Below, piece by piece: positions 16,692-51,800 of a DNA stretch of 64,000 bases. The notes under the pieces were generated by a model. It saw only the letters and a list, made by a program, of their open reading frames with translations. It did not search any database and was not told the DNA's origin. The translations under genes and the position numbers were made by a program. The first letter of the stretch is position 1. Each line of letters starts with the position of its first letter. Source of the DNA: a virus; IMG/VR virus record IMGVR_UViG_3300020477_001475, positions 1-64,000 of that record; one strand, written 5' to 3'.

Positions 16692-17777
16692 TCATCGACC
16701 CACTTCTTTTATAAACTTTTTTTTAGATTCTTCATAAGTCAATCCAAATAGTTTATCCCAAAAATGTAATTCTGATATTTCTCTTTTATCAGATTTTAAT
16801 TTATTAAATCTTTTTTCTGCCTTTGGTTTCCACCAATCCATCATATATTGATTATAATTTACGAACTTTTCTTGTAAAATTAAAGAATCTTGTTCAATAT
16901 CACCACATAAAAAATCATTTGTATTTTCGTAGAATGGACACCAATAAATTCCTCTCTGTATTCCATGTTCAAATTCACTTGTCTTTAATCCGCAAGTTCT
17001 ATATATCTTACCGAATGCACCCAATCTATCTTTACTCTTTTCACCAAAATATTCTTCCCATCTTTTAACTACAGGTCTGGGTAATTTAATTGGCATTTTA
17101 CCAGATGTTTTTCCCATCTTTTTAAATGTTGGTAATCTATTATATTGTGAGAAAGTTCCATATAAAGATGTAGTTGTCATCCCAACTAATTTGTCACCAT
17201 AACTGCATTCCCACACATTCCTAATTGTATCTGATGTTATAAGTAATGCCATCAGTTTACCACCAAGAAAATTAAACCCGAATGGTTGTATGGGTATTAT
17301 GGCCTGCCCACATGCAATATTATTCAACCTTTTATTTTTATATCTATCATCTCTCACCCAACCAATATATTTATCCCGTGCACCCAAGTCACCAAAATCA
17401 GAAGTTACTGTTAATGCACCAAGATACAAACCAGTTGATTCATCTTCAACCAAAAATTTAAGGTTTCTGCCGGGGTTCGACACATTTTTGAAACTTGAAG
17501 TGAATCGTATTAAGTAGCGCCAGTCATCTAATTGTTCTTTTGTTTTTACATGAATAACTTTTGGTTTTAAATTAGTAATATCCATGTTATTCCACAATTT
17601 ATTTTTTAAAGTATTTATTTTAAATTGTTCACCAATACAATCTTGTATTTCCAAATACTTTTCGTAAAATACTGCTTCCGATGAATCTTGATTTTTTTTC
17701 ATTTCTATATAATCAAGAACTTCTTGTTTTTCTTTTTCAAAATCAAATTTAGTATCAAAAAATTTATCTACCAACAT
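16692..17777 (-). CDS. DUF4338 / Druantia DruA-like protein (paralog 2)
   Basis: NPGRNLKFLV..., RDKYIGW, PIQPFGFNFLGGKLMA, TTTSLYG..SQYN. Confidence 0.75.
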   Translation of the reverse strand: MLVDKFFDTKFDFEKEKQEVLDYIEMKKNQDSSEAVFYEKYLEIQDCIGEQFKINTLKNKLWNNMDITNLKPKVIHVKTKEQLDDWRYLIRFTSSFKNVSNPGRNLKFLVEDESTGLYLGALTVTSDFGDLGARDKYIGWVRDDRYKNKRLNNIACGQAIIPIQPFGFNFLGGKLMALLITSDTIRNVWECSYGDKLVGMTTTSLYGTFSQYNRLPTFKKMGKTSGKMPIKLPRPVVKRWEEYFGEKSKDRLGAFGKIYRTCGLKTSEFEHGIQRGIYWCPFYENTNDFLCGDIEQDSLILQEKFVNYNQYMMDWWKPKAEKRFNKLKSDKREISELHFWDKLFGLTYEESKKKFIKEVGR

Positions 17778-18948
17778 CAGTTAAATACTTCTCCTTTGCT
17801 TCTTCATAAGTTATATCAAACATATCAATATAATATAATGTTTCATCTTTTATTCTATCTTGTTCCAAAAGTTTTGTATATCTTTTGATTGCTTTCTTTT
17901 TCCACCATCTGTTAATGTAATCATAATCTTCTACAAACTTTTTCTTCATAACCAGTTCACTATCATCAATTTCATTTCGTAGATATTCTAAACCATTATC
18001 ATACATGTTAGCAAAGAATACACCTCTCTTAAATCCATGTTCGTAATCTTTAGCTTTAATACCAAGATGTCTAAATATTCTATTTATTATATTTTGTTTA
18101 GGACCAGTGGCATGAATAGCTTTATCATATTCATCAAAGTGATTTTCTTTTAACCAATCACTCCAAACTTTATAAACTGAATCATCTGGTTTAATAGATA
18201 TTTTACCTGTGGATTCACCCAATGTTTTCCAGTGTGGAATACCATTGTATTGAGAATGCACACCATAAAGAGATGTAGTGGTTACACCAACTAAGATTTC
18301 ATTGTAATTTTCATACCATTTATCTCTGATAGTTGATGTTGTTACAAGTGCTGATAGTAATTTACCACCGAGAAAATTGAAACCTAATGGCTGGGTTGGA
18401 ACTATGGAAGTTCCTATACAGGTATGATTTAATTTGTGATCTACAAATTTATTATCTTTGGTCCATTTAATATAATCATCTCTAACTTTAATTGATGTTA
18501 CATCTGAACCAACTGATATTACACCAAGATATTTACCTGTAATACTATCTTTAGCGAAGAATTTAATATTTCTACCTGGGTTAGCTGTAAACTCCATAGA
18601 TGATATTAATGTTCTTAAAATAGTCCAGGTTTCATTATCATCTGTATATTCAACAATAGGATCCAATTTTTCTATTTCAGATATAGTAAGTTCTTTGTTG
18701 GTTATATCTGTTGGTTTCCATATTCGATTATACATCAATTCAGCTTTATGATGATTCTTTCTAAACTTTATTCTAATCTTTTCATCTTTATTAAATTCTT
18801 GCCATTTTTTATACAATGTTTGTTCTTGCACAGACATTGATTTTAACATATCAAGATTATCTATAAAGTTTTGTCTTTCGTCATCGAAATTGAATTCTTC
18901 TATTTCGAAAAAATTATTAATTATACTCATACCATAATATAACATCAT
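17764..18948 (-). CDS. DUF4338 / Druantia DruA-like protein (paralog 1)
   Basis: NPGRNIKFF..., RDDYIKW, PTQPLGFNFLGGKLLS, TTTSLYGVHSQYN; both paralogs end in VGR. Confidence 0.75.
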   Translation of the reverse strand: MMLYYGMSIINNFFEIEEFNFDDERQNFIDNLDMLKSMSVQEQTLYKKWQEFNKDEKIRIKFRKNHHKAELMYNRIWKPTDITNKELTISEIEKLDPIVEYTDDNETWTILRTLISSMEFTANPGRNIKFFAKDSITGKYLGVISVGSDVTSIKVRDDYIKWTKDNKFVDHKLNHTCIGTSIVPTQPLGFNFLGGKLLSALVTTSTIRDKWYENYNEILVGVTTTSLYGVHSQYNGIPHWKTLGESTGKISIKPDDSVYKVWSDWLKENHFDEYDKAIHATGPKQNIINRIFRHLGIKAKDYEHGFKRGVFFANMYDNGLEYLRNEIDDSELVMKKKFVEDYDYINRWWKKKAIKRYTKLLEQDRIKDETLYYIDMFDITYEEAKEKYLTDVGR

Positions 18949-32382: not shown

Positions 32383-33552
32383 CTAGTTAGTTGAGGAACC
32401 CGCTTCGCTCATTTCTTCTTCCGAGAAGAGATTTTCATCAGTGCCGTCATTTATGAACTTTTGAACAATTTGTTTCACGAACGTTCTTTCAGAATCAACC
32501 CCACCAGCGTCATCATATTGAGGATAAATACTAACTTCAGCTGCTTCTTCTAACTTGAAACCATCGAATAGTAACCCAGATAATTCAACTGTCGTTCTTG
32601 TACTAATACCAAAAGGAACTCTTGCGGTTTCAGACTTTGATTCAGATCGCGTCATCGAGGCAATCTCAGAAACATTTTTCAGAATTTCACTATCTACGTG
32701 AGGAAACATATATGTAAGAAGTTCATATTCTTCTTCTTGAGACAATACATCCATTTCAACAATTGTGAAACGATCCATAAGAGCTTTGTCCATAACCCTA
32801 GTCGATGTATATTCATTACCTATATTAGCGGTGGCCACAAACGTAACCCCTTGAGCAACTTTTACAGTCGCTTGAGTATCTTGTTCATCCAACCTTAAAT
32901 ATCTTTGACCGTAATCTAATACTGTCATTAAAATATTCCAAGCGTCAGGATGAGCCCTGGATAATTCATCTAATAGTATCACCGCGTTTGGTGTTTGAAT
33001 TGCTTTAACAAAAAGTGCTTCTGAAAAGTATGTTCCAGAAGATTTTTCGAAATGTGTATTACCAATAAGAGTAGCTCGTGGATCTTGAGTCGCACCTAAG
33101 TTGAAATAAAAGTCAGGTCGATCAAGTGAGTTAACCAAAGCTTTAGCTGCCATAGTTTTACCACAACCTGCAGGCCCGGTCATCATAATATTTTTACCAC
33201 GAACAGCTGATCTTACTAAATACTTCCACTTTAATTCTTTCATCATCAACCCTTTAGGCTTCAATGAATATGAATTATGAATGAAGTTAAGTACTTCGGC
33301 GTGATCCGTTGGGATTTCCACACCCATAGTTGCCGTTTCAACAACTGGTGCAGATTCTACATTGTCAACCCTACGCCAGTAGGTCTTACCAGTAGTACCA
33401 ACAAATCTACCTAATAGATAATTCCCTTCGAAGGCTTTCCTACGGCAATTTGTGGTGATTTCAGAAGTACGCTTAATACCATCAGTATCCCAAGCGTTAA
33501 ACCGGTTACCCGATTTCTCAATCCTTACTATTAAATTTGGTGTCTTGTTCAT
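32383..33552 (-). CDS. MoxR/CbbQ/NirQ-type AAA+ ATPase
   Basis: GPAGCGKT, ILLDELSRA, FVATANIG, MDKALMDRF, ISTR. Confidence 0.9.
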   Translation of the reverse strand: MNKTPNLIVRIEKSGNRFNAWDTDGIKRTSEITTNCRRKAFEGNYLLGRFVGTTGKTYWRRVDNVESAPVVETATMGVEIPTDHAEVLNFIHNSYSLKPKGLMMKELKWKYLVRSAVRGKNIMMTGPAGCGKTMAAKALVNSLDRPDFYFNLGATQDPRATLIGNTHFEKSSGTYFSEALFVKAIQTPNAVILLDELSRAHPDAWNILMTVLDYGQRYLRLDEQDTQATVKVAQGVTFVATANIGNEYTSTRVMDKALMDRFTIVEMDVLSQEEEYELLTYMFPHVDSEILKNVSEIASMTRSESKSETARVPFGISTRTTVELSGLLFDGFKLEEAAEVSIYPQYDDAGGVDSERTFVKQIVQKFINDGTDENLFSEEEMSEAGSSTN

Positions 33553-33797: not shown

Positions 33798-33831
33798 AAA
33801 AAAAAGGCGAGAGGATTAAACTCGCCTTTTT
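33798..33831 (-). terminator. Terminator closing the non-coding transcription unit
   Basis: AAAAAGGCGAG...CTCGCCTTTTTTTT on minus. Confidence 0.8.
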
Positions 33832-33963
33832 ATAGTGTTGTAGGGGAAGAAAGGACTAAAGACCCCCACAACCGAGTGATAAACGAATAGTGAGGAGAGA
33901 ACCACGAGGGACTGGAAGTATTTCGCGACCGAACTACAATCAAGTATGGTGGTTGCTCTCTTG

Positions 33964-34036
33964 AGCGGAATCGTAGAACTGCCCTACGCTCTATACACTG
34001 GTATGTGTATCGTTTCTCTCTTGAAACCTATTCCGC
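33964..34036 (-). tRNA. Non-canonical tRNA-Gly-like RNA (anticodon-position ACC)
   Basis: GCGGAAT AG GTTTC AAGAGA GAAAC G ATACAC ATACCA GTGTAT AGAG CGTAG GGCAGTT CTACG ATTCCGC T; perfect cloverleaf, no encoded CCA. Confidence 0.75.
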
Positions 34037-34045
34037 AATTTTTTG

Positions 34046-34118
34046 AGCGGGATTTAGGAACTGCCCCTAACCCTTTACACTGGAATGTGTAACGAATCTC
34101 TCTTGATTCTTATCCCGC
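34046..34118 (-). tRNA. Non-canonical tRNA-Gly-like RNA (anticodon-position TCC)
   Basis: GCGGGAT AA GAATC AAGAGA GATTC G TTACAC ATTCCA GTGTAA AGGG TTAGG GGCAGTT CCTAA ATCCCGC T; covaries with the first copy in all four stems. Confidence 0.75.
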
Positions 34119-34417
34119 AAATGTATAACCTTTATTTAATTTTCCTGGCCCGCCGACGCCATACTTGTCGATGACAGATAAGTGACTCTTAATCCTAATC
34201 GGAGGAAATTAAATACTTTCTATGTCAAAAATCTTTTTCTAATTACTTCTGAAGTGACTTGCCCTCAGTCGAACCCCCATTGGTTACGAATTATAACCCC
34301 AGAAGCATCTCCTTAATGCCCTAACCTACTTATCAAACCGGAGAAGGCCAGTAAGTATCAAACGGGCGGTGTTACACGATTTTTAAATTCATATCATATC
34401 CTTTTCCATTATACTAT

Positions 34418-34452
34418 AATATACGGCTGATCTGCCATACAAAACAACGTTT
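34418..34452 (-). promoter_or_regulatory. Early promoter of the ncRNA unit
   Basis: AAACG-TTGTTT-N18-TATATT. Confidence 0.7.
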
Positions 34453-36819: not shown

Positions 36820-39800
36820 TCAACAATTTTCAAGTGTAAGACAATCATCTTGTTCAGCTGATATATCCACCATCGATGATAATCCTCCAAAATCACCAGT
36901 AACATTTGTACCATCAGCAGAATAAAAACCTTCTTCAGTTAATCTTAATTCTTGACATGATTGAAAATCTAAATAGTGTATCGGGTAATGTGATGCCCAA
37001 TTAGGAACATGACCTCCTGGTGTATTAGAAACCCCATCACCAATAAAAGTAAATGGTGGGTTATCAGCATTCAAATCATGCATAGCAATTAAACCACCAG
37101 AATGACTTTCACCAAAATGATCATACCACATACCTTCATGGCTCGTTGTTAAATCTACGCACCCGTGAGTAAAAGGTACATCTACATATTGCTCCATACC
37201 AGCTACACCTCTCATACCCATGGTATATTTAGCTATATTAAATGCATACGCATCATCTCCACCATGATAATTTGCAAATGCCACATCTGTATCTATAGTT
37301 TTCTTTACAGTTAATGCATCAGTGAGGCTAGGATAAAATATATCATAAGTGCTTGGATTATCAGCACCAAGAAATTGATATATAGGAGTTGTGTTAGAAA
37401 ATTGTTTCATTCTAGTAATATCAGGATAATCAGGAGCCATTGTATTTACTGGTTGATAATTACCGTCACTAAATTGGGAATAATTATAAATTATATTTTC
37501 GCAATCATTATCTTCAAGTTCTTCATACGTATCACAGTTATCAGCAGTTGTTAATGTCCAGGTTCCATTTGGATAGTCCGCACCATCACTTTCACAATGT
37601 TCGTTACTGTCTGTACAATACCAATACCAATCTCCCACAGCTGTTCTATATGTATGGTATGCATCAGGATCATAATAAGTTTCCGTCCAATTACCATTTT
37701 CCGGAACTGGATCTAATTCCCGATTGGCTATAACAGCATCACATGAAGGACCTTCACCATCTATCAAGTTTTGTATTGAATAACCTCCATCAGGTCCATC
37801 TACAAAAAATCCAGGTTGTGTTAATATAGTTGCTATATTACCACATAATGCTGAATAATCAAGAAAACCTGCTCCTGCAATAGCAGATGTTGATATCATA
37901 TTTGGTTCAATTCTAAAATTTTCAACATACTCCACATCACCTTCAGCTATACCACCTATTTTACCCATCGTGACATCATATGTATTTGGATTATAATAAT
38001 TTGGTGTACCAGTTGCCATTGGTGCAGGAGGCCAGTTAGAACACATATTATTATTAAAACCAAAACCTTGATTATGAAGCCCATCACTACAATCAGTCAT
38101 ATCCCACCAACCCCAAAATTTAGAAGGGTAACCTTTCAAAGATCCCACACCAAATGCATTAACTTGATATGGGTAACCGCCTTTATTAGGAGCTATGTGC
38201 AATTCATTCATAAAATGACCTTTATAACCCCATTTATTAGGTAAAAATTTAGGTACCCATATTTTTGGATTTCTCATCATACCATATTTTGGGAATTCAG
38301 TAGCAGGTTGTTTTGTCAGCTTTATACCTATTTCAAATTTTACTTTTGTACCTTTGGGAATTATACCAGTTCCAACTAATTTATGCCAATAAGATCCATC
38401 AGTATAATCTCCACCTGGATTTAGACGACCTGCAGCGCCAGTAGGATCACCACCTGAATCATAATCCACAAAATTCATTAAATCACTCATAGGTCCACCA
38501 CCTACAGACCATTCACTATAACCCCATGCTTGTTCTCTATCACCCATTGAATCACCACTATACAAATGTAAAGTACTTGGATTATCTGATTGTATATGAG
38601 GAGTAGTACCATAATCACTTCCAGGAATATTACGTTCACCTGGTTGATTAAAACTGTGAGAAGCACCTTCGTGATGTATCCAGCCAGTATCTATATCACC
38701 CCAAGAAACTCTATATACCAATGAATGAACTCCCCTATTACCTGCACCAGACCTAATAGATTTAGATTCAGCAGACATCATTATATTATAAATGGGTACA
38801 TCTTTATCGAATACAATAGTTTTTTGAAAAAGTTTATTAAGACTACCATATCCTGAATTTGTGGAGCCCCATGGTATTTGAGTGTCCCACCAATCAGGAT
38901 CCATAGATGAAGGGTTATTATGATGTTGCATACACCCAGTATAACAATCAGGACATTCTTCTCCCCATCTATCGATGTAACCCTTACCACCTGAATATTT
39001 ATCACTTACTTCATGCATACCAGAAGTTGTAGTTCCTAAAGTTGGACAAAGTACAGGCTCACAACAGCTTCCATTATTGCATATTGAATTAGAAACGGTG
39101 AATCCAGGTTGAAGTCCTGTAAGCATTTGTGAAAAATCTTCTAGGAATTCCCAAAACCATCCAGGTTGTTGTCCTTCAGCATTACCCCATCCAACACAAT
39201 AAGAAGAACCTTGTGCAGGATCCATACCAAATGGCCATGGTTTTTGATGTACATCACCATTAGGATAACTTTCATCAGGAATATATCCTGTATCAGCACA
39301 ACCATCATCATAATAACCATTATGCCAAGTACCTATATCACTCACAGTGTTGTCATTTACATCAAAATAACCACAACAATCTGCAGAACAAAATTGAGAT
39401 TCTGAATAAGGATCCACATTACTTGTATGATATAAATTAGTATCAGTCATTCCTAATATATAACCTCTTTCACCATCAGACATTTCAAGTTCACCACTAA
39501 TAGAATTATCTATAAATGTATCTCCAACAACAACTTGACCTGCCAATGAATTATCGTGAGTACTATTAGGACAAAATCCACCACATATAGCTCTACCACC
39601 ACAAGCATTATTATATTGATAACCTTCATCAGTACTTGTTGTTGGGTGAGATTTTAATTCTTCTCGAACCGACCAACCTTGATCGATTATTTGACGACAT
39701 TGAATTTGACCTGGATAAGTATAATTACCATCAGGATCATAAGCAGGATACCATTCACTATAACAATCATGGCTTCTCGTATCTCCACAATAAGGATCAC

Positions 39801-42800
39801 AACAACTGTAAAATTCTTCTTTATTAGCGACTAAATCAATAGAATCTTGATCATTAGTAAGGTATTTACTACAACCATAACTACCATCACCAAAATAATT
39901 TATAAAACAAGCATTTAAATCATTAGGCCATTCATACTCTAAGTCTTTACATAAACTACCTTGAAATCCTTCAGTCGCAAGTGGTGAAATTCCCAAACAT
40001 TCTCCATCCGGACAATCACTATTATCAAGTGAAGGTATACATGCTACTCCATGATTAGATCCACCATGACAATAACCTGCATCTTCACCTACTGCCATAT
40101 CAAACATAGCACATTCAAATATACAACCAACATTCGATTGGTCTGTAAATTCAATTATACTATTTGGATCAGCACAACCATGTTTATTATAAATACAGTC
40201 ACTTGGTTTATGTATAGTTATGTCATCACTTTCTTCATAATTACCGTAAGGAGGTATAGCCCCAGGATCTTTACAACCCAAACAATCTTTATGATCATGA
40301 GAATAAACTTTACAACCACAATGTAAATCCAACATGTCACCAGTATCTTCAGGATAATCAGTTGTTATATTAACTTGATGTATAGGATCATATGGCCATA
40401 TTGGAATATCATGAGTTTTTAAATCCCATACAACACTTTGCCAATAAAAATTATCTTCCCAATCCAAATCACCATTAGAATCTATTGGTTTCCTACCGTG
40501 TATATTTGTATCACCAAACCTAAATCCACCATAATAATTTGAAAATAATAATGGATATAAAACATCATCATTATGATAATTGGCACTACATTCACCAGTT
40601 TTAGAATATAAAGGTTTACACTGACCACTACAATCAATATCAGGTCCACCATATATAAATTCACCTAAATCATAATTTGTAGTAAGTCTTGGGAAATTGC
40701 CTATAAATGTATCACCGTCATCCAAACAAACACCACCATTTTGATCACATGTAAAGACTTCCACAATATCACCTTCAAAATCGGCGGGTTTAGAAGTTCC
40801 TCTCCAATGCGGTGAATTTAAATGTGTTATTTCACCTATATCATTTTTTATATTTGGGCAATTACGAATTGTATAAGGACTATTACATATACCACATTCA
40901 TCCAATTCACCATATTCAGTAAATGGATCTAAATTATCAATTCCAGTATCATCAGGATAAGTATCACAGTTACAATCCATTCTACGAACACCGGAACCAC
41001 CGTCATCAGCTCCAAAACTTTCTAAAGGACCCATACCAACCACACATGTTTTTATTCTCTCTGAACTATCGTCTTGTGGTCCAGGTACACAAACTTCATT
41101 TTTATTTTCCCATAATTTAAATAACCCACCAGGATCATCTGCACCATATGGGCCTATAGGATGATGAGGATTAACATCATTTACACCATCTTCACCCCTC
41201 ATATGTTTATTATCGGGATGTGTAATTATTTTTAAAGCCTTCAAAAATGGTATGTCTAATAATGCATTGTCTAATGGTATATACTGACCATCTTCATTTT
41301 CTTCAATCGTTTCACCATAATCAGACAAGGAATCGTTACAAAATTCATCGTATCTATAAACATACCCATAATTTAAACCTGCACATTGATTTAAATCATC
41401 TAAAACATTAATCCTGGCTGTCAAAGATCCAGCTGGTACACAATTTCCATGACAATCAGTAAAATTATATTCACATTGACACGCTGATAAAGTTGGTTCA
41501 TAACAACCGACTTGATAAGGATTACTACAATCTACTTCACCCATGTCTATAAATTCACCATTTTCTTCATCATAATAACCACATACAGGATGTAGTTCAT
41601 TTCCCGTAGGCCAATCTACTGGTTCACCTTCATAATCTGGAACACACTCCCAATCTTCACCAATACATGAAGAAAGTTGTTCACATTCATCATAATCTTC
41701 ATGATTTCCTAAACCTAAACAATTACATTTTCTAACAGCATCTTCAATTAATTCATCACCAACAAAAGGACCCATCCAACCAGGATGAATTCCACCGTTA
41801 GCCCACCATACATTATTATCATCACAACATTCTGGATTTGTATGATCAAAATTAGAATCCCTAAAACAAGGATACCCTCCAAAATTCTGATTATCTTCAG
41901 TATATGCTCCACCACTAACATCATCAGGATTCTTACAAATAGAGTTCTGATTTATATAACCAGTAATAGGTGAATAACAAGCATTTATACCAGTATGATT
42001 TGAATATGGATCATCAACTTCCCAGTGATAATCCCATCCCAAACATTTTATATCACCCCAATAACCTGTACCAGTAGAAGGAAGATTATTAGAGCTATTT
42101 CCAGTTGTTGGGAAAGTACAATAGTCCATTTCACATTGTATTTCTTCAAATAAATCATACCCAGCTTCAGCAGCAATTTGTTGACATCTATTATCAAGTT
42201 GAATTCTTCCAGAATTATTACCACTATAATTCATTAAAAATTCTATATTGGGTGCATCACATGTTGTATCAAAATCATTAAATGCTTGTTTCGAAGAAAA
42301 ATCAGACCAATTACCATCATTTAAACCTATGCATGCACCACGAAGTGGGTTACATCCTGAACATTGATATTTGCCAGTTTTTTCATCAAAGCATGTAAGA
42401 TTTGTATCATTTTCACAATAACCATAATTATCAGGTTTATTATTTTGAAAATTGGTATGATCAAATTTTAAAAATTCAGCTTGGTATATCCATTCACCAC
42501 CTTCATCAATACAATCAGACTCTGAAATATCATCACTCAAACCACCTTCACCTAAGTCACAATAATTTTCAAGATTTGGACAAGGTCTTCCATCAGAATC
42601 CCATCCGTCACCCTCACCATCACGTTTCCAAGTTAATGGCATAACACCACTTCTGCCGTTATCGGTTGGTAAATTAGGAGATCCAGCTAAAGAATGTTGT
42701 CCTTTATCCGGTATATAATTCCAACAACCACAACCATTATTTCCATAAAGATCTTCATCTGATCTAGTACCACCTTCACCCGAGAAAACATATTGACTAT

Positions 42801-45800
42801 TAACACAAGCTCCACAACTACCACCATGAAAGAATCCACTACCAAATCTAAGACCAGCACAATCGTATCTATATTCACAACAATAATTTTCATTTACTGT
42901 TGTACCATTATTACTACAATTGGTATCATCGTCATCCCACTCTTCATATTCACCACTATTTGGTCCGGTGATATATCCTCTTGAAATTTCAAAATCATAA
43001 CTTTTTAGAACAACATCTTCCCAACCTTCATCCAATCTTTGAAATACCAACTTAAATCCTCTACCATAAATTGGTAATTTAGATGGAACATCCCATTGAA
43101 ATACACCGGATCCCATAGCATCAGGAGATAAACTAGTTATAAACTTATGATTAAAATGATATTCACTATCTTCATCTAAATTAAACATAGGGTCTATAGA
43201 AAGACCTAAATTTGGGTGATAAAGATAAACATCAAAATTTCCAAGCCATAATTCATCTATGGATATTGTCCATTCAACAGATTGTGTGCTACCCGGTTTA
43301 AAAATACTACAATATGATGGAACATCTATTCTACCATCATCAACCCAACCATCTATAACATATGATTCATATTCAGCTATACATTCTACTACTGGTGGAT
43401 GATTTGGTATATCATAAACACCATCTCCATCTTCATCTGATTGGCAATAGAAATTATCCACGACACCAAAATTATAATCACCCCAACAATAATAATTTTC
43501 CGCGTTTGAATCAGTACAAGCTTTTATTGGTTCGTAAACACAACATTTTAAATAATTACAATCACTGGATGTATTCCACAATCTAGCACAAGATGAAGGG
43601 TTTCCTTCACCACCATCACAATCTTCGACATTAAAAACAGGTAAAACTTGAGAGTTAGTACCAAATAAACCTCTTCTAATTGTAACATAAAATTCACCAG
43701 AGTAATTAATATCTTCTGTTGATATACTCAAAACTTCAAAAACATCTAAATCATTACTATTATTATAATTTATAAAATCAGTATCAAGTATATCACCTGG
43801 TGTATGTGTTATATAAGAACCTACACTTAAATTCCATGGTCTTTCAGTCCATTTTTTAACAGTTAAAATCAATTGATCTGCTTCACCATCTACAGTAGAT
43901 TGATTAACAACCATTATATCAGTTTCTACAGGTGGTGAACCTGCAAATAAACAATCGTGTAATAAATTATTTTCACAATCACGAGTAGCATCAGGGTCAA
44001 AATTGAGAGCTCTATCATCTTTACACCCATAATCAAATCCAAATTCACAACAAGAATTATATCCATGTGAAGTTGGGTGAGATGTATTATTACATACATC
44101 ACCAACTACAGTTTCTTGAGCATCATGATAATATTCAGGACAAGGTTTTAATCCATTTCCACCAAAATCAGAATCACAAGATATAGCAATACCATACCAC
44201 CAATGTATATTAAAACATATACCTTGACCAGAATAACCACCTTCATCACAACCATATCCATTCGATAAACATTCTACACCGTCATCTCCCACTTCTTCAT
44301 TACTATTATAACCAAATGCTTCTAAACCTAGTCCAGTTGCATTTGTCATATTCCAATCACCTGTACAAGAAAAATCACAATCTTCACAATTAAAAACAGA
44401 TAAATTATTTCTACAACCAGTACAAGATTTATTCCAGGATTTATCAGATGGTACTTTAGTATTATCATCAAAAGTTGTTTCATATGGTGCCGATGAATGT
44501 AAATTATATATACAATTCCTGGCACCAGTATCACAATTACTTCTTTTAAATGGGTTCAATCCTACACCATTGGGATCGGGATATTCATCTGGTAGTTTAA
44601 TAGAAAATCCATCACACGATTCTTTTATACAATAATTTTCATCACCATCACATTCATCATTACAATTATTATTATCATAAATCGTACCATTAATATCATC
44701 AGAACATACATAAGAAATATCACCTTCACCATTTGTATATTCACATACACCTTGTAAAGCTATACCATTTAATGCAAAACCATCTTGTGCAGGCCAACAA
44801 TAACCTGAACATAATGATTCATCACCACTACAATCTACACCGAAATTATCATAATTTCTACAATACGAATTACCTACTGTTGCTGATGCTGATGATCGAC
44901 ATTCACCACAGTCATCATACAAATTTGAATAACAAAGACAAGATATACCTTGCTCATCAGCATTGTTCACATGAGGGAAATTACATATATTACCAGCAAC
45001 ATCACAACCATCGTCTTCACAGTTACAATTTTGACAAGTACCGCCCGAATCTGTACAATGTCCACTGTATGCTATTTGTCCTTGTCTATGTAATCCAATA
45101 TTATCACATCGGAATTCTTCATATTCATGATAACCAGTTTCCCAACAACCTATCCCATCACCATCTACATCTGGATACCACTTCTTTCTATATTCACAAC
45201 TACTGTTATGATGTGTTGCATCCGAATTATAATTACACACATAATCACTATTTTCATATTCTTGACATAAACCTATACAATCATTATCAATTTCAAATTG
45301 AGTAGTATCTACATTGAATATATCTTCTTCACTATCGTATTTACAATTTATCCACTTCATACCACCAGCTAAATCATCAACTTCACATCTGGTTAAAGGT
45401 CTATCATCCATACAACCATATACTGCAGAGTTTACTGTAAATTGTTCAGATTTTTTTATTAAACAATCATCATCTTGATAACATCCCGCTGGATAATATA
45501 CAGTTATTTCATAATCACCAGGCGAATAATCTGATAACCCATAAGTAACATCATTATTTTCATCACCAAGAGTTATTTTATTGAAGTCATCACCAGATGT
45601 ATTTAAAAGAAATATAGAACCACCTGGCTGTAATTCTACACAATCACCACTACACACACTGTTATCCCATATACCATCAATAAAATTCCAACATAAGGGA
45701 GGATCAGAATCATCATCACTAACGCATCTAAACCCACCAGGCAATCCATCAAATGTATTACAATTATTGAAACCATTATCATAATAGATTCCAACAGTAC

Positions 45801-48800
45801 AATCCACTTTCTTCACAGAATAAGAAAAAGTTTCATTTGTATAATCATCATCTGGATTTGTATTACGAATACAATGATATCCACCATCATAATATGAACT
45901 TATATCTTGATATATACTGTCATTTTCACTTACATCATTTAAATAAAAATAAAAAGGATAACCTTCGTATATAGTTGGTGCTCCATTTTCATTAGCATAA
46001 CTTGGTTCTATTATATCCAAATTAACACAAGAACCAACACAACCTTCTGGGTCAACATCATCAAAATTATCTATAAAACTTGGATATGTTAATACATCAC
46101 ATTCTTCAAAAGTACAATCTACATAATTTTGACATAATTCATCACTATATTGGCCAACTAAATCGGCGTCAACCAAACTCATACAATAATTGTGATATTC
46201 CTGACATACACAAGAATTATCTTTACATATATAGTTATCCGCTTGAGCTTCTACACAAGCTTGGTGATCATTATTATCACCATAATATGGAGGTTCAACC
46301 CACCAACCACATGTATCTCCTTCAATATTATGTGGTGCAGTAGGTATTTGCCAATAATATCCATTTTCATCATAAAAAGTTTGATTAACAATTCTTAATG
46401 GCCAATTATTTGAAAAATCTGAATCATTTGGGCAAAAGAACACACCACCATCACATTGTGCATTATTCCAAACCCATATTTCAATGGCCGTAGAATCAAA
46501 ACCTAAAACATCATATGGAAATGGATCCCATGTACAAGCTCCACCATAACCATAACCATCACCATCCCAATCTAAATAGTAAGCAGTTGGTGCTGGTCCA
46601 CCACAACCACATCCATAATCTAATATTTGACTATCAATATCACCCATATCACCAAAATTTTCATCTTCCCAACACATACCCATACAATTTTCTATAGGTA
46701 CATAATCAGAATTTATAGCTAATTGAACAAGTGATGGCCAATTATCCCAATTATTTATCAATACTGTATCCCATTCATCTGGAGTATTAGAACAATCAGG
46801 ATTAAATTGATCATCCAAACACATGAATCCGAAGGTAATATCTGTCACTCCACATCCAGGAATTAAATCTTCGGCATCCATTTCATCATCAGTTACAACA
46901 TCATACCAATTGATATAATATGGTATCCAAGCATCTACACCATCTAAATAAGGTTCTACATAACAAGGCTCAGATCCACCACCAACGATATATGTTAAAA
47001 ATTGATTTTCATCTACATTGTAATAGCAATCCAATTGATATACCCAACCAGGTATATGATAAAAAATACCATCTATGTCCTTTTCACCACAAAGATAATG
47101 AACCATACCACTCGCCAAACCATCACCATCTGTATCTTCCCACCATGTGTACTGACCACAACTGTCATTACCGGGTAAATCTTGACAAGATGTTAAACAA
47201 GCACAACACATATCTGTGTCTGGATTATTACATTGTACCCAATCATCTACGACACAACAATGTTCAACTTCATATTGACCAGTAGAATCTATAGTATGAT
47301 AACAATACTCTTTCATTTGAGTCCAATTAGGATCATTTATAGGATTATCATTACCATCATAACAAGGAATACCTTTACAATCACTACAACTCGTATTCCA
47401 ATCTTGATTATTAGGTATTTTATAAACACCATCTTCTAAATTTGGATTATCCATACAAGGGTTATTATTTTTATTAAAATAAAATACATTGTTTACATCC
47501 AAGTCATTTTTATACCATACTTGATTGTTATAACTAATCGCTGTATCTGTAAAATCAATATGACTCACATCACCAGAACAATTCAATTGCATACAAACAC
47601 CACAATCATCTGATTTTAAACGGCTGTTATTACCACTACAAGTATTGGTTAAATCCACCGTACATAAATTACTGTCATCATAACCATACTCCAATGGATC
47701 ACATCCATATGTTATACCATTTATAGAACTACATTCTTTGTCTGGTGTAACTGCTAGAGTATTACACACATTATCGGTACAAGGTTCACCTGTAACATTA
47801 TCACATATCGTAGTAGGTTCATTATTACATACCCAAGTATCTTGACAATAACCTTCCAATTTACATTCTTTTCTCCAATCCCTATAAACATCATCATCAG
47901 CAAAACAATCTCCACAATAATCACGACAATCATTATCATTCATGTAATCACAATATATGCATGTATCATCGTCATCATCATAACACCTGTTTTCATCTGT
48001 ACTAATACAATAACCACCCACCACCAATGGATCAGATTCATCTAATACATTAATACAAGCATTTTCTAAACAATTTTCATCTTCACTACCAAAATAACAA
48101 TTAAATCCCCAAGGCTGATAGTTTCCATCACCTATATGTTCACATGTAACACAACCTTCATCGTCCCAATCACCCAAACATATTTCATCTCGAGGCATAC
48201 CAGATGAATAACCATCACCATCTTCATCAGAATAACAAGTTTCTACATACCCATCACCACCACATTGATCACAAGTATCACAATCAGTACCATCATTACA
48301 CACACCATTACAACCTTGTGTCGCACAACCCAAAGACAACCCATTTTCACATCCAATTGGACCTTTACATTCATATTCACCATCACCATCACCAAGATCA
48401 AAACAAGTACCATTTGGACATTCTGGACAATTTTGTACACTACCATCATCAGGTATAATATAACCATCTGGATGTATTTGTATACATGTATGTGATGCAT
48501 CTAAAATATTACCATCTTGATCTCTACAAAAACTCATACATTCATCTTCATGACCTTCTTCCACACAATTACCACAAGAATCATAATAATCAGTATCACA
48601 TTCACAATAAGCATCACCAACAATAGATTCACACATACCAGCATTTTGTGATTCACAATAAACATCACCACTTGATAAAATACCATTCAATTGGTAAACT
48701 TTATCACTAGGATCACATTGTATATTTGTACCATAACATATACCACCTAATATAAAATCATTACCACACATTGAATCTAAACTTCCATCTTCAATCAATT

Positions 48801-51800
48801 CACCAGCAATATCATAACAATACTTAACCCATGGAAAGTCACACGCTGCACCATCACCATCACAATCAGAATAAAAAGTTAATCTTGTATCAACTAAATT
48901 AGCTATACATTCATTATTATTTCCACTAAATCCAATAGGAGGTGGACAATTTTCACCTATTTGGACATCATTAGGACATGATGGTCTAAAACAATTATTA
49001 GGACTACCACATAATGCTGTAGTATTAGTACGTGGATTACATTCTATACCACCAGATTCACCACCACAAGTATATTCATTACAAATTCTATCATAACCAT
49101 CTGTATCATCCCAAACAACTGGATAACAAAATTCACCACATGTTATAGTAGAATAACTTGGATCACTACCATCATATTTAAATTTACACGAACCATCTTC
49201 TTCGGTTGCAAATGGATTATAATTACAAGCTTCTGAATTAGTACAACCCCATACTTGACAATTCCAGTAAATATTACCTTCACTACTTTGACATACTTCT
49301 GGATTAGCAACGAATCTTATATAAGATGGATTAGTATCAGAACCAGATGCACCATAACCATATTCAAAATAATTGGACCCCTCTTCTTTACTTGCGGTAA
49401 ATTGTGCCAATATATATATGTTACCGTCATCAGGATTAAAAATTCTTATAGTATATTCATTTAAACCAACACCATCATATTTAATATTCTCTGGAAAATC
49501 ATATAGAGGTTTACCTTGAGCTCCTCTAGATAAACAATATTCATCACCTTCACAATCAGTAACTTCAGGATACCATGTATTGTCATGTGTACTTAATAAA
49601 TAATGCCAATCCCAATTTTCAGCAGTTTCTTCAAATATATCATCATAATGTGGATCGGTATCATTTAACAAATATTGAAATACTAATGGTGAAATATTTT
49701 CAGTCGACCATAATCCATCCCAAATATATAAACAAGGATCATTCTGATTATTGTCACAATACACAGAACAATCAGGATTACTGTCAGGACATTCACTATT
49801 ATCATCTGAAGGTAAACATGGTTTTTCTTCACCTGTTTGGCAGAAATAACCAGCTTCAGGATATAAACTATACCAGGTTTCATCTTCAGTACCTGTTAGT
49901 TCATTTACAAGATACGGTGGTTCAATATTACCAATATAATTTATATTAAAAGGAAAATGTCTGAATGTAGGCATAATACCTTTTATTTCACAATCTTCAA
50001 CACTTGTACAAGAATGGTTTGGATTGGGTAACCCAGATTGTAATGCAAATCCTTTGAATATACCAACCACATGATTGTCATAAGGAGATATATCACCATT
50101 ATCAAAATAACCTACATCTGGTACAGGTTGTCCTAACCAATCACCACCTTCTAAAGTTTCACCTTCAATTAAATTGACATTCATATAGAATACATCACCA
50201 TTAGGACCGTGAGAATCACTTACATTATAATAAGAAGTATACCAATTAAAAGGGAAATTTTCTATACAACTACCATCATCGTCTTCACATCTAGCAGGAT
50301 ATCCACCATTGTCCGGTAATGCTGCATCAACATTTACTTCACATTCACCAGCACTCAAATAAGATAGTTTATTTCCAGAAGTAATCCATTCATTTGAAGT
50401 ACTTGCATCAAAATGAGAAAGTGATTTCCATTCATAACTTTTCCATTCCGGAGTTAACCATTTTGCATATATCCATTCCCATTCATGACCACTCCACCCA
50501 TTTGCGTGATTACAATAATCATTATAATCTCTTCTACTACTACTGGAATAACCAATACCATGATGATCTTTATGTCCTGGTCCAGCACTTCCTATGGGAT
50601 ATGGTATATTACCCCTTATATCAGTTTCTTCTCCATCAGATGCATCAAAAAATTCTCTACCATTATCTGTATGATGATAACCTCTAGCTTCACCATAATG
50701 TATTGCTGCATTTTTACGATCCCAACATATACCATATTTATTATCACACCTATCACCACCACTATTATCAAGTCTTTCATCCAAAAACCAGTAATATGTT
50801 CTAATTTCACTTTCATCATCTTCCCATTCCCATGGAGGTCCAGTAGGAGTACAATCACCACCATATAAGCAACCATCAGTATCATAATCACCCATTAAAT
50901 TACTAAAGCCAGCTGGCCAATAATTAAGATTACCACCATCTTCATAATAATGTTTATCATATTTTTGCCAATGATAACCCCAGTCACAACCCACAGGACA
51001 GCCATCGTATTCTTCAGGATTACCAGTTTGTCTAATTATAGAACCATCATCAGGATTACTTAAACAATCATTAGATAAACCCTGATAAAAAGTATCTACA
51101 CTCCAAGAAACATATTTATAACATTCTCTTTGTGGAGTTAAAGCCCACAACTCAGTTGGACCACCCATTATAAAAGTTATTCTGTTTTCTTCATTTAAAG
51201 GTGCATTACCATCCCAAGGCCATTGTGCATAATCATCTTCGTGTAAACCACCTAGTGGTAAGGTAGCTCTTGGTAAATAACCACCTTCTGCCGACAATAG
51301 TATTTCGTCGCCTTCAAACCATTCACCATCATCTGTTTCATCACAATCATCTTCATTATCAATATCAGGATAACCATCACAATATGATTCACCTCTATAC
51401 CACCAATTTTCGTCATCCATTAAATCAAATACACAAAATCCTGTAGATTCACATTCATCTTGATCAGCTGCAACTAGTGTTTCACCTGTTAAGGGATTAA
51501 CACAAATTCCCATATCTTCACAAGTACTGTCATCTTCATACAAATCTGTAAACCATTCCAACACATTATCATCATCATCGTATAATACACAATAACCATA
51601 ATCTGTATCACCACAATATGTTTCCACATCAAAAGTTTCGGTGCACCCTTCACCTGTATTTGGATCACTCCCATCACCACAAGATTCTACTATATAACAA
51701 TTATTAAAACCTTCACATTCAGCTTGGTCCATAGTATCAGTTAAAATAACTATTGGGTCACAACATTGAGAACTATTATCACATTCATGAATAGTACCAA

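Follow-up and report, generated by a model that had tools for sequence, protein, structure and literature searches.

The tandem pair and its fold

The window analysed here is the first 64 kb (positions 1 to 64,000) of the 108,474-bp IMG/VR virus record IMGVR_UViG_3300020477_001475, which is estimated to be 55% complete. It has a GC content of about 30% and nearly all of its genes lie on a single strand. The DNA sequencing runs that contain it are marine metagenomes, and no RNA run is listed among the public runs containing it. Within a non-coding gap of about 900 nucleotides (nt) lies a tandem pair of tRNA-Gly-like RNAs, which belong to an RNA family linked to the DNA-modifying enzyme Mom and which probably serve the Mom enzymes of this phage as glycyl donors that do not decode. 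The gap is upstream of an ATPase gene, and the features at the site are as follows.

34046..34118, minus strand: copy A, a Mom-associated tRNA-Gly-like RNA of 73 nt with loop AUUCCA, 'anticodon' UCC and discriminator U
34037..34045, minus strand: spacer of 9 nt between copy A and copy B, CAAAAAAUU
33964..34036, minus strand: copy B, 73 nt, with loop AUACCA, 'anticodon' ACC and discriminator U
32383-33552, minus strand: AAA_5/CbbQ-like ATPase gene, the downstream neighbour of the copies

A sequence-only reading of this stretch had described two 73-nt minus-strand cloverleaves 9 nt apart, and their coordinates, strand and fold are confirmed. Each copy, folded alone, gives the same cloverleaf: a 7-bp acceptor stem, 2 nt, a 5-bp D-stem with a 6-nt loop, 1 nt, a 6-bp anticodon stem with a 6-nt loop, a 4-nt variable region, and a 5-bp T-stem with a 7-nt loop. 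Copy A folds at -25.5 kcal/mol (z = -4.9; shuffled mean -13.6) and copy B at -24.9 kcal/mol (z = -5.2; shuffled mean -12.2), with 0 of 200 shuffles as good in either case, and both cloverleaves are still present when the whole 691-nt non-coding region is folded. Between the copies, 19 of 73 positions are changed. Eight compensated pairs (5:68, the D-stem pairs 11:24 and 12:23, 27:44, and four T-stem pairs) account for sixteen of the changes, which bears out the claim that the stem differences are compensatory. The remaining three fall on unpaired positions: the wobble base, position 9 and a single base of the variable loop. As had also been read, the D-loop AAGAGA and the T-loop GGCAGUU are the same in both copies, and the anticodon loop differs only at the wobble base.

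The identity set of bacterial glycyl-tRNA synthetase (GlyRS) consists of G1:C72, C2:G71, G3:C70, U73, C35, and C36. This set is complete in both copies, in agreement with the sequence-only reading. Neither copy is followed by an encoded CCA; the sequence and a census of 3′ trailers place CAA 3′ of both. The core of the copies has A8, C14, A18, G54, G55, and G58, and of the tertiary core only G19, C56, G53, and C61 are kept. The reported loss of the D-loop GG, TPsiC, U8, and A58 is thus correct, but the elbow is altered and not lost, with its outer pair G19:C56 and with G53:C61 retained.

Standard detectors pass over the pair. ARAGORN at default settings finds 0 tRNA genes, whether in the window or across the full 108-kb record, and relaxed settings return nothing at the two copies and no tRNA in the record, where a low or pseudogene score had been expected. 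Rfam 15 gives nothing at the site at gathering scores. At E<=10, a 1.1-kb search gives no tRNA match (RF00005) and nothing on the copies, so that the pair matches no RNA family already described there; a high-scoring match of that kind would have counted against the earlier reading. Furthermore, blastn of the 691-nt non-coding region against 50,697 phage records returns no match. Two other readings of this region, as a Ro60/Y-RNA-like RNA and as a group I intron, were dropped since neither has Rfam support and the AAA gene is full length when compared with close relatives.

The RNA family and its conserved marks

In each of four related contigs, a covariance model based on the pair finds one copy, again upstream of the ATPase gene, and a second model finds more diverged members located elsewhere in other relatives. 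Copy A scores 94.7-100.6 bits and copy B 91.8-99.4 bits with models R1, built from the window pair and one IMG/VR relative, and R2. A pattern made of the loops only (CAAGAGAG, a gap of 30-31 nt, GGGCAGTTC) and containing no information on Mom matches 51 loci in IMG/VR (42 model-confirmed), 83 loci in one genome per prokaryote species (20 model-confirmed), and at least 120 loci in metagenomes, of which 80 were retrieved and gave 77 model hits. The family totals 142 instances and 109 distinct sequences from viral contigs, metagenomes, and bacterial and archaeal metagenome-assembled genomes (MAGs), in genomes with a GC content of about 27% to 69%. Several candidates were rejected along the way. 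The first fixed-spacing patterns found only the relative L004 because they assumed the 73-nt form; L005 and L006 are chance matches that lack a cloverleaf; matches of the 31-nt-gap pattern outside the marine lineage are likewise due to chance and have no model hit; and a 35-bit hit in the phage Melnitz is an ordinary tRNA-Trp.

Comparative data on 47 aligned distinct sequences show that the RNA structure is under selection. Standard pairs fill 96.6% of the pair cells (67% when shuffled), 17 of 23 pairs have changed on both sides, and the covariation score is 0.749, compared with 0.16 for shuffled alignments and <=0.12 for slid registers. Selection on structure, as opposed to tRNA decay, had been proposed from the pair alone, and the homologues found with the suggested covariance model and with the loop pattern form a family of 109 distinct sequences whose cloverleaf covaries strongly. 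Both copies align to the family without gaps except for one extra loop base. They carry all of its marks, which include the D-loop CAAGAGAG, G53 with the T-loop and C61 (GGGCAGUUC), and A8, as well as a 5-bp D-stem, a 6-bp anticodon stem, a loop ending in CCA, and a 4-nt variable region. Tandem pairs recur in L272, L274, L289, L300, and L323, and the related metagenome contig L289 has the same UCC and ACC tandem pair as the window.

The features that would be needed for charging with glycine are kept across the family. G1:C72 and C2:G71 are invariant, and 3:70 is G-C in 98 of 108 sequences. C35-C36-A37 is essentially invariant, and the CCA of the loop is kept in all but two sequences. Also retained are A8, the 5-bp D-stem, G19, G53:C61, C56, and the 4-nt variable region. 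The discriminator is U in 106 sequences and A in only two, both from contigs of archaeal MAGs (bins of Methanosarcinales and Woesearchaeota). Position 73 is A in archaeal tRNAGly and U in its bacterial counterpart, and the switch, seen in these two cases, fits selection for charging by the host GlyRS. CCA is encoded directly after the discriminator in 31 of 110 distinct cases (28%; 1.6% expected by chance), and position 74 is C in 69 of 71 members of the low-GC group. Together these point to a tRNA-type 3′ end.

The positions on which decoding depends have a different fate, with U8, A14, G18, T54, psi55, and A58 all replaced. Positions 32 and 38 covary as C-G, U-A, or A-U and form a Watson-Crick pair in 103 of 108 sequences, and position 33 can be U, C, A, or G (loops UCCCA, CCCCA, ACCCA, and GCCCA), so that the 7-nt anticodon loop and U33 are lost. 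Most members have a 5-nt loop, NNCCA. The 6-bp stem with a 6-nt loop described by the sequence-only reading is correct for both copies, but the 6-nt loop, AU[A/U]CCA, is found only in a marine sub-lineage of 25 distinct sequences that includes them. The closed loop and the variable position 33 argue against ribosomal decoding and frameshifting. The proposal that the RNAs would be chargeable with glycine and unfit for decoding is therefore consistent with the comparative data, in which the identity marks are kept, position 33 is free, and 32:38 is paired.

The Mom link, the genome setting, and the proposed function

Mom (PF25680) is encoded in 37 of the 46 IMG/VR records that bear the loop pattern. 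Eight of the other nine have no model hit, and in the ninth the hit lies at the contig end with its first 6 nt missing. The RNA of small phages and prophages is contained in the stop-to-stop Mom frame, at its 3′ end, about 9 codons after the end of the Pfam domain. Base 1 of the element invariably falls on codon position 1, and 208-332 open codons precede it. U7-A8-A9 of the element provides the mom stop codon in several low-GC cases; elsewhere the frame reads through. This embedded arrangement is present in 20 of 20 GTDB genome hits, mostly Planctomycetota, and likewise in 27 metagenome contigs. The loop bases are the same in genomes of 30% and 70% GC and in free-standing copies, and in embedded copies their identity extends to codon third positions and to the codons AGA and TCA, which are expected to be rare at high GC. 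Selection thus acts at the level of the RNA and not of the protein. As a separate observation, single MAGs can hold two to five Mom genes with embedded RNA on different contigs, with loops that differ only at position 33 or 34 (L163, L173, L183, L197, and L222 in one Planctomycetota MAG; L168 and L171; L176 and L208; L204 and L223).

In marine jumbo phages, including that of the window, the RNA is free-standing and is preceded by a conserved promoter-like block. In a set of 49 contigs anchored on the ATPase, Mom is present in 7 of 7 with the RNA family, compared with 5 of 42 without it (Fisher p = 9e-6, a value that is indicative only, as the contigs are fragments, are related to one another, and were compared with kinship ignored). 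The distance between RNA and Mom varies from about 60 nt upstream of one Mom gene (the G050 variant) to 2.2 kb from two (G009 and G010) and about 50 kb in the present genome. Since this genome has two Mom genes and the RNA is fused or adjacent to Mom elsewhere, the sequences point to Mom as the most likely partner enzyme. The two genes lie outside the window.

Genome 84825-85502, in tandem with the next: first Mom gene (PF25680/phrog_1384), E about 1e-50
Genome 85514-86272, in tandem with the preceding: second Mom gene (PF25680/phrog_1384), E about 1e-50

The two Mom genes are 39% identical to each other. MomB matches the structure of Mu Mom (8bv8) at E 7e-13, with H58, Y59, R111, S124, D149, and Y159 kept and R151 replaced. 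In a tree of Mom proteins, the genes with embedded RNA fall in two supported clades of 56 and 10 sequences.

Directly upstream of MomB (genome 86273-86471(-), L088:2273-2471(-)) is another tRNA-like sequence, with a canonical T-arm, a class-II-type D-arm, a GUC anticodon loop, and a very long variable-arm insert. It is called by neither ARAGORN nor Rfam, and its fold is not better than that of shuffles (z = -0.2). Further upstream of the Mom genes (genome 86472-89260(-), L088:2472-5260(-)) are cytidylyltransferase-like, class-II synthetase core, and glutamine-synthetase-like genes. The class-II aminoacyl-tRNA-synthetase core has 275 aa (tRNA-synt_2, E 8e-17), and no anticodon-binding domain was detected in it. 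Together with the GUC tRNA-like RNA, these genes suggest that a different amino acid, charged by the phage, may be the substrate of a second Mom paralogue.

The copies themselves are part of a larger non-coding unit, whose other elements are as follows.

34409..34450, minus strand: promoter-like block (TTGTTT, 18 nt, TATATT, then TAGTATAA), from an alignment of five upstream regions
34119..34408, minus strand: non-coding leader of about 290 nt with no open reading frame (ORF), partly common to L123 and absent in L004, L140, and L124
33890..33963, minus strand: downstream hairpin module, from the fold (5′ strand AGAGAGCAACCAC, 3′ strand GUGGUUCUCUCCUCAC)
33798..33830, minus strand: terminator-like hairpin, from sequence and fold (GGCGAG / CUCGCC, then eight U)

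The promoter-like block was called because it is conserved upstream of the RNA, and not because of a consensus scan, in which it does not stand above shuffles. Its first hexamer is TTGACT in related jumbo-phage contigs, and it lies 10-25 nt before the RNA in L004, L140, and L124 and about 290 nt before copy A here. The CAGUCCCUC...GUUCUCUCCUCAC part of the downstream hairpin module aligns with, and is kept in, L123 and L140. The terminator-like hairpin is the probable end of the non-coding transcription unit, and the weak Rfam matches to small RNAs are all located on it. A terminator scan of the unit called none, this hairpin included, which is attributed to its 9-nt loop, as the limit of the scan is 8.

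Several further observations concern the surroundings of the pair. CU-rich conserved modules lie 3′ of copy B at 33890-33963(-) and about 33840-33876(-) (GUUCUCUCCUCAC and GGGGUCUUUAGUCCUUUCUUCCCC); they are common to L123, L140, and L004 and may act in processing or form a small RNA transcribed together with the pair. The D-loop octamer CAAGAGAG recurs directly after copy B. About 2.7 kb upstream, a single ORF of 5,119 codons spans 36820-52179(-). Homologues of the AAA_5/CbbQ-like ATPase delimit a large group of marine jumbo-phage contigs, and this gene was considered as the functional partner of the RNA. Its association looks positional only, because the RNA is located elsewhere in other relatives.

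The explanation that is favoured, with moderate confidence, is that the two units are paralogues of one another, carried by the phage and descended from tRNA-Gly, and that they act as dedicated, non-decoding glycyl donors for the Mom enzymes of the phage. The pair would be transcribed from the promoter-like block within a non-coding unit of about 650 nt, and the units would then be excised by RNase P and 3′ processing and receive CCA. Host GlyRS could glycylate them through G1:C72, C2:G71, G3:C70, U73, C35, and C36, after which Mom-family enzymes would use them as private glycyl donors, a chemistry demonstrated only for Mu Mom. The rebuilt elbow (A18, G54, G55, and G58, with G19:C56 kept), together with the closed 6-bp stem and short loop, would exclude the RNA from EF-Tu and the ribosome. 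Possibly, the elbow is also a specific handle for Mom.

A number of observations weigh against this explanation. Mu Mom accepts all host tRNAGly isoacceptors (PMC13219725), and a private donor is therefore not required by the chemistry. The family RNA is absent from five complete genomes of cultured phages with Mom (Polaribacter P12002L, Microbacterium LeeroyJenkins, Proteus P2-71, Synechococcus S-SSM7, and Pseudanabaena Pan3), and none was found around Mom in Bacillus SerPounce (1.5 kb on each side) or in the 1.2-1.5 kb flanks of Mom in three further cultured phages (Melnitz, Edwardsiella ET-ABTNL-9, and Psychrobacter Y8A) and in one unverified phage record from a fecal metagenome. Some 50 kb separate the RNAs of this genome from its Mom genes, the RNAs having an unrelated AAA ATPase as neighbour, and the Mom genes themselves belong to a third, mixed clade of the tree that includes cultured phages without the RNA. 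The invariance of the D- and T-loops arises partly by construction, as most members were found with a pattern that demands these loops. In addition, the T-stem rule for EF-Tu (PMC3239215) gives +0.9 and +1.0 kcal/mol for the two copies, a family mean of +0.87, and +0.7 for the ordinary phage tRNAGly of relatives, and so does not separate the family from the latter. Finally, C35 and C36 are presented in a loop of 5 or 6 nt, from which their acceptance by GlyRS is a prediction only.

A more far-reaching version of the donor hypothesis is tentative and, in our estimate, rather less probable than its being wrong. Here the altered elbow would be a recognition handle, and the RNA and Mom an orthogonal pair fully insulated from translation. 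Searches with the models alone return members with the odd loops unchanged and members whose elbow is canonical throughout, in which a D-loop of AAGGGU or AAAGGC accompanies the T-loop UUCGAUU (L094 and L251). These searches found no mixtures, as a co-adapted contact between D-loop and T-loop would give; in these sequences, the elbow switch at positions 18, 20, 54, 55, 57, and 58 comes in two all-or-none versions. Under the same tentative reading, one transcript in small phages would provide enzyme and carrier, and excision of the carrier would leave a stop-less mom mRNA that limits a toxic enzyme. The UCC and ACC isoforms might serve the two Mom paralogues, and the GUC tRNA-like RNA beside the synthetase core hints that these paralogues may attach different amino acids to DNA.

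The main rival to a private donor, though an unlikely one, is a regulatory or inhibitory mimic, an uncharged RNA that binds Mom or GlyRS or that acts in cis on the mom transcript, thereby holding a toxic enzyme in check or tying its production to cleavage by RNase P. In Mu, the expression of Mom is under tight control. The RNA of most small phages sits in the mom frame, where excision would cut the mRNA before or at the stop codon (at U7-A8-A9 in some low-GC cases), as a role in cis would have it. A purely cis role nevertheless fails for the jumbo phages, whose copies are free-standing behind the promoter-like block, far from mom, and often in tandem. The full acceptor identity set, A73 in the two archaeal MAG contigs, and the encoded CCA in 28% of cases also speak for a charged 3′ end.

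That the units are working elongator tRNAs is improbable. As such they would be UCC and ACC isoacceptors that together read all GGN codons, or +1 frameshifters that exploit the extra loop base. Related contigs do carry ordinary, ARAGORN-called tRNA-Gly (UCC/ACC) with C32, which share the acceptor stem and NCC with the pair, and ARAGORN finds no other tRNA in the 108-kb record. The range of bases at position 33, the Watson-Crick covariation at 32:38 that leaves 5 or 6 loop bases, the replacement of U8, A14, G18, T54, psi55, and A58, and the failure of both ARAGORN and the Rfam tRNA model to score either unit all oppose this reading, as does the tie of the family to Mom and not to tRNA clusters. 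The frameshifting alternative that the sequence-only reading had raised finds no support, since the extra base is 5′ of position 33, outside the anticodon, and a covarying pair closes off the loop.

Some phages are known to overcome tRNA-targeting defences with tRNAs of their own, and the units might be decoys for, or resistant substitutes against, a host attack on tRNAGly or Gly-tRNAGly, for instance by an anticodon nuclease or by a GNAT toxin of the TacT kind. Toxins of the GNAT type with specificity for Gly-tRNAGly are mentioned in PMC13219725, and altered loops could block recognition. A role in counter-defence is nonetheless very improbable. A substitute must decode, against which the loop argues, and a decoy for an anticodon nuclease should keep the native loop, so that this suggestion of the sequence-only reading gains no support from an anticodon loop that is not tRNA-like. 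Furthermore, counter-defence leaves the fusion to mom in well over 70 independent contigs unexplained.

The window also holds two further genes that could be considered as partners.

16692-17777 and 17764-18948, minus strand: tandem DruA/DUF4338 (PF14236) paralogues, E 4e-25 and 2e-21, beside a PhoH gene

That another phage enzyme such as these uses the glycyl donor, instead of or besides Mom, is very improbable, because BLASTP of a DruA paralogue against Mom finds no similarity and the loci examined showed no linkage of DruA to the RNA family, while PF25680 is linked to it almost everywhere. Among the ORFs scanned in the window, no further genes of a Druantia system were noticed.

Significance and comparison with known systems

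If the units are indeed dedicated glycyl donors for Mom, the family would add to the known non-proteogenic tRNAGly a second case, independent of the first and much more widespread. It would be viral, carried by viruses of bacteria and probably of archaea, and tied to DNA hypermodification, not to the cell wall. This would take further the 2026 finding that charged tRNA is used by Mom, in that many phages would bring their own carrier, sometimes within the coding sequence of the enzyme. The family would also offer a natural tRNA scaffold excluded from the ribosome for synthetic biology, and a simple marker by which glycine-type adenine modification could be recognised from sequence in metagenomic phages. 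It is, in addition, a reminder that tRNA finders miss functional tRNA derivatives.

The family is related in sequence to ordinary phage tRNA-Gly. Related jumbo-phage contigs (L096-L099) carry an ordinary tRNA-Gly with an ACC anticodon (A34) and C32; this anticodon is unusual in bacteria. The ordinary tRNA-Gly (UCC/ACC) of these contigs resemble the window copies in the acceptor GCGG...CCGCU, NCC, C32, the 4-nt variable region, and overall length. They differ in having U8, a T-loop of UUCGAUU, UUCAACU, or UUCAAUU, a 7-nt loop with U33, and an ARAGORN call, none of which applies to the copies. L094 and L251 are a bridging form, in which the body plan of the family is combined with a canonical elbow.

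Two other groups of unusual RNAs invite comparison. Frameshift-suppressor tRNAGly of the sufD type has an 8-nt anticodon loop, and shares with the window copies one extra base in the anticodon-loop region of a glycine tRNA. In the copies, however, the extra A is 5′ of U33 and not in the anticodon, and the covarying 32:38 pair, C32:G38 in the copies, leaves 6 loop bases (5 in most relatives). The aminoacylatable 3′ tRNA-like structures of plant-virus RNAs and the tRNA-like domain of tmRNA mimic only the acceptor and T-arms or use pseudoknots, and function in replication or ribosome rescue. The embedded RNAs of small phages are likewise a chargeable tRNA mimic within a longer protein-coding RNA, with charging predicted, whereas the family has a full tRNA-sized cloverleaf that forms a separate gene in jumbo phages.

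In double-stranded DNA, Mu Mom attaches glycine taken from Gly-tRNAGly to N6 of adenine, and the enzyme is selective for tRNAGly (Silva et al., Nat Commun 2026, PMC13219725). The likeness of the present system to Mu Mom (PMC13219725; PDB 8bv8; PF25680) lies in the two PF25680 proteins of this phage, the conservation of most catalytic residues in MomB, and the glycine marks in the RNA. The difference is that Mu has no tRNA of its own, while here and in more than 100 other contigs the sequences indicate a phage-borne, non-decoding carrier. The literature searched, including a term search within PMC13219725, holds no mention of a Mom-associated tRNA.

The closest parallel is provided by the staphylococcal non-proteogenic (NP) tRNAGly. 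NP1-3 of S. aureus and S. epidermidis are donors for FmhB/FemA/FemB (Rietmeyer et al. 2021, PMC7826273). They have G55, a 6-bp stem with a 5-nt loop, and poor EF-Tu binding, and the Fem preference depends on the D- and T-arms (PMC7826273). These two species are the only ones in which extra non-proteogenic tRNAs serving peptidoglycan synthesis were known at the time of that study, and the NP clade is confined to staphylococci (PMC7826273). The analogy drawn by the sequence-only reading holds in several details, as the window RNAs, judged from sequence alone, also keep the GlyRS marks, have G at the psi55 site, have lost the D-loop GG, and have a 6-bp anticodon stem. A dedicated glycine carrier outside translation is common to both, as a proposed role in the case of the family. 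The family differs in its loops GGCAGUU and AAGAGA, in not keeping U33, in being phage-encoded, and in its frequent location inside the enzyme's own frame. The partner of the NP tRNAGly is a peptidoglycan Fem transferase, whereas that proposed for the family is the DNA-modifying Mom. The sequences therefore indicate that the resemblance is one of analogy, with specialised features that are not homologous and an independent lineage. A dedicated non-proteogenic tRNAGly for a tRNA-dependent transferase is already known as a kind, and what appear to be new are the viral origin, the DNA-modifying partner, the rebuilt elbow, the in-frame embedding, and the broad distribution of the family.

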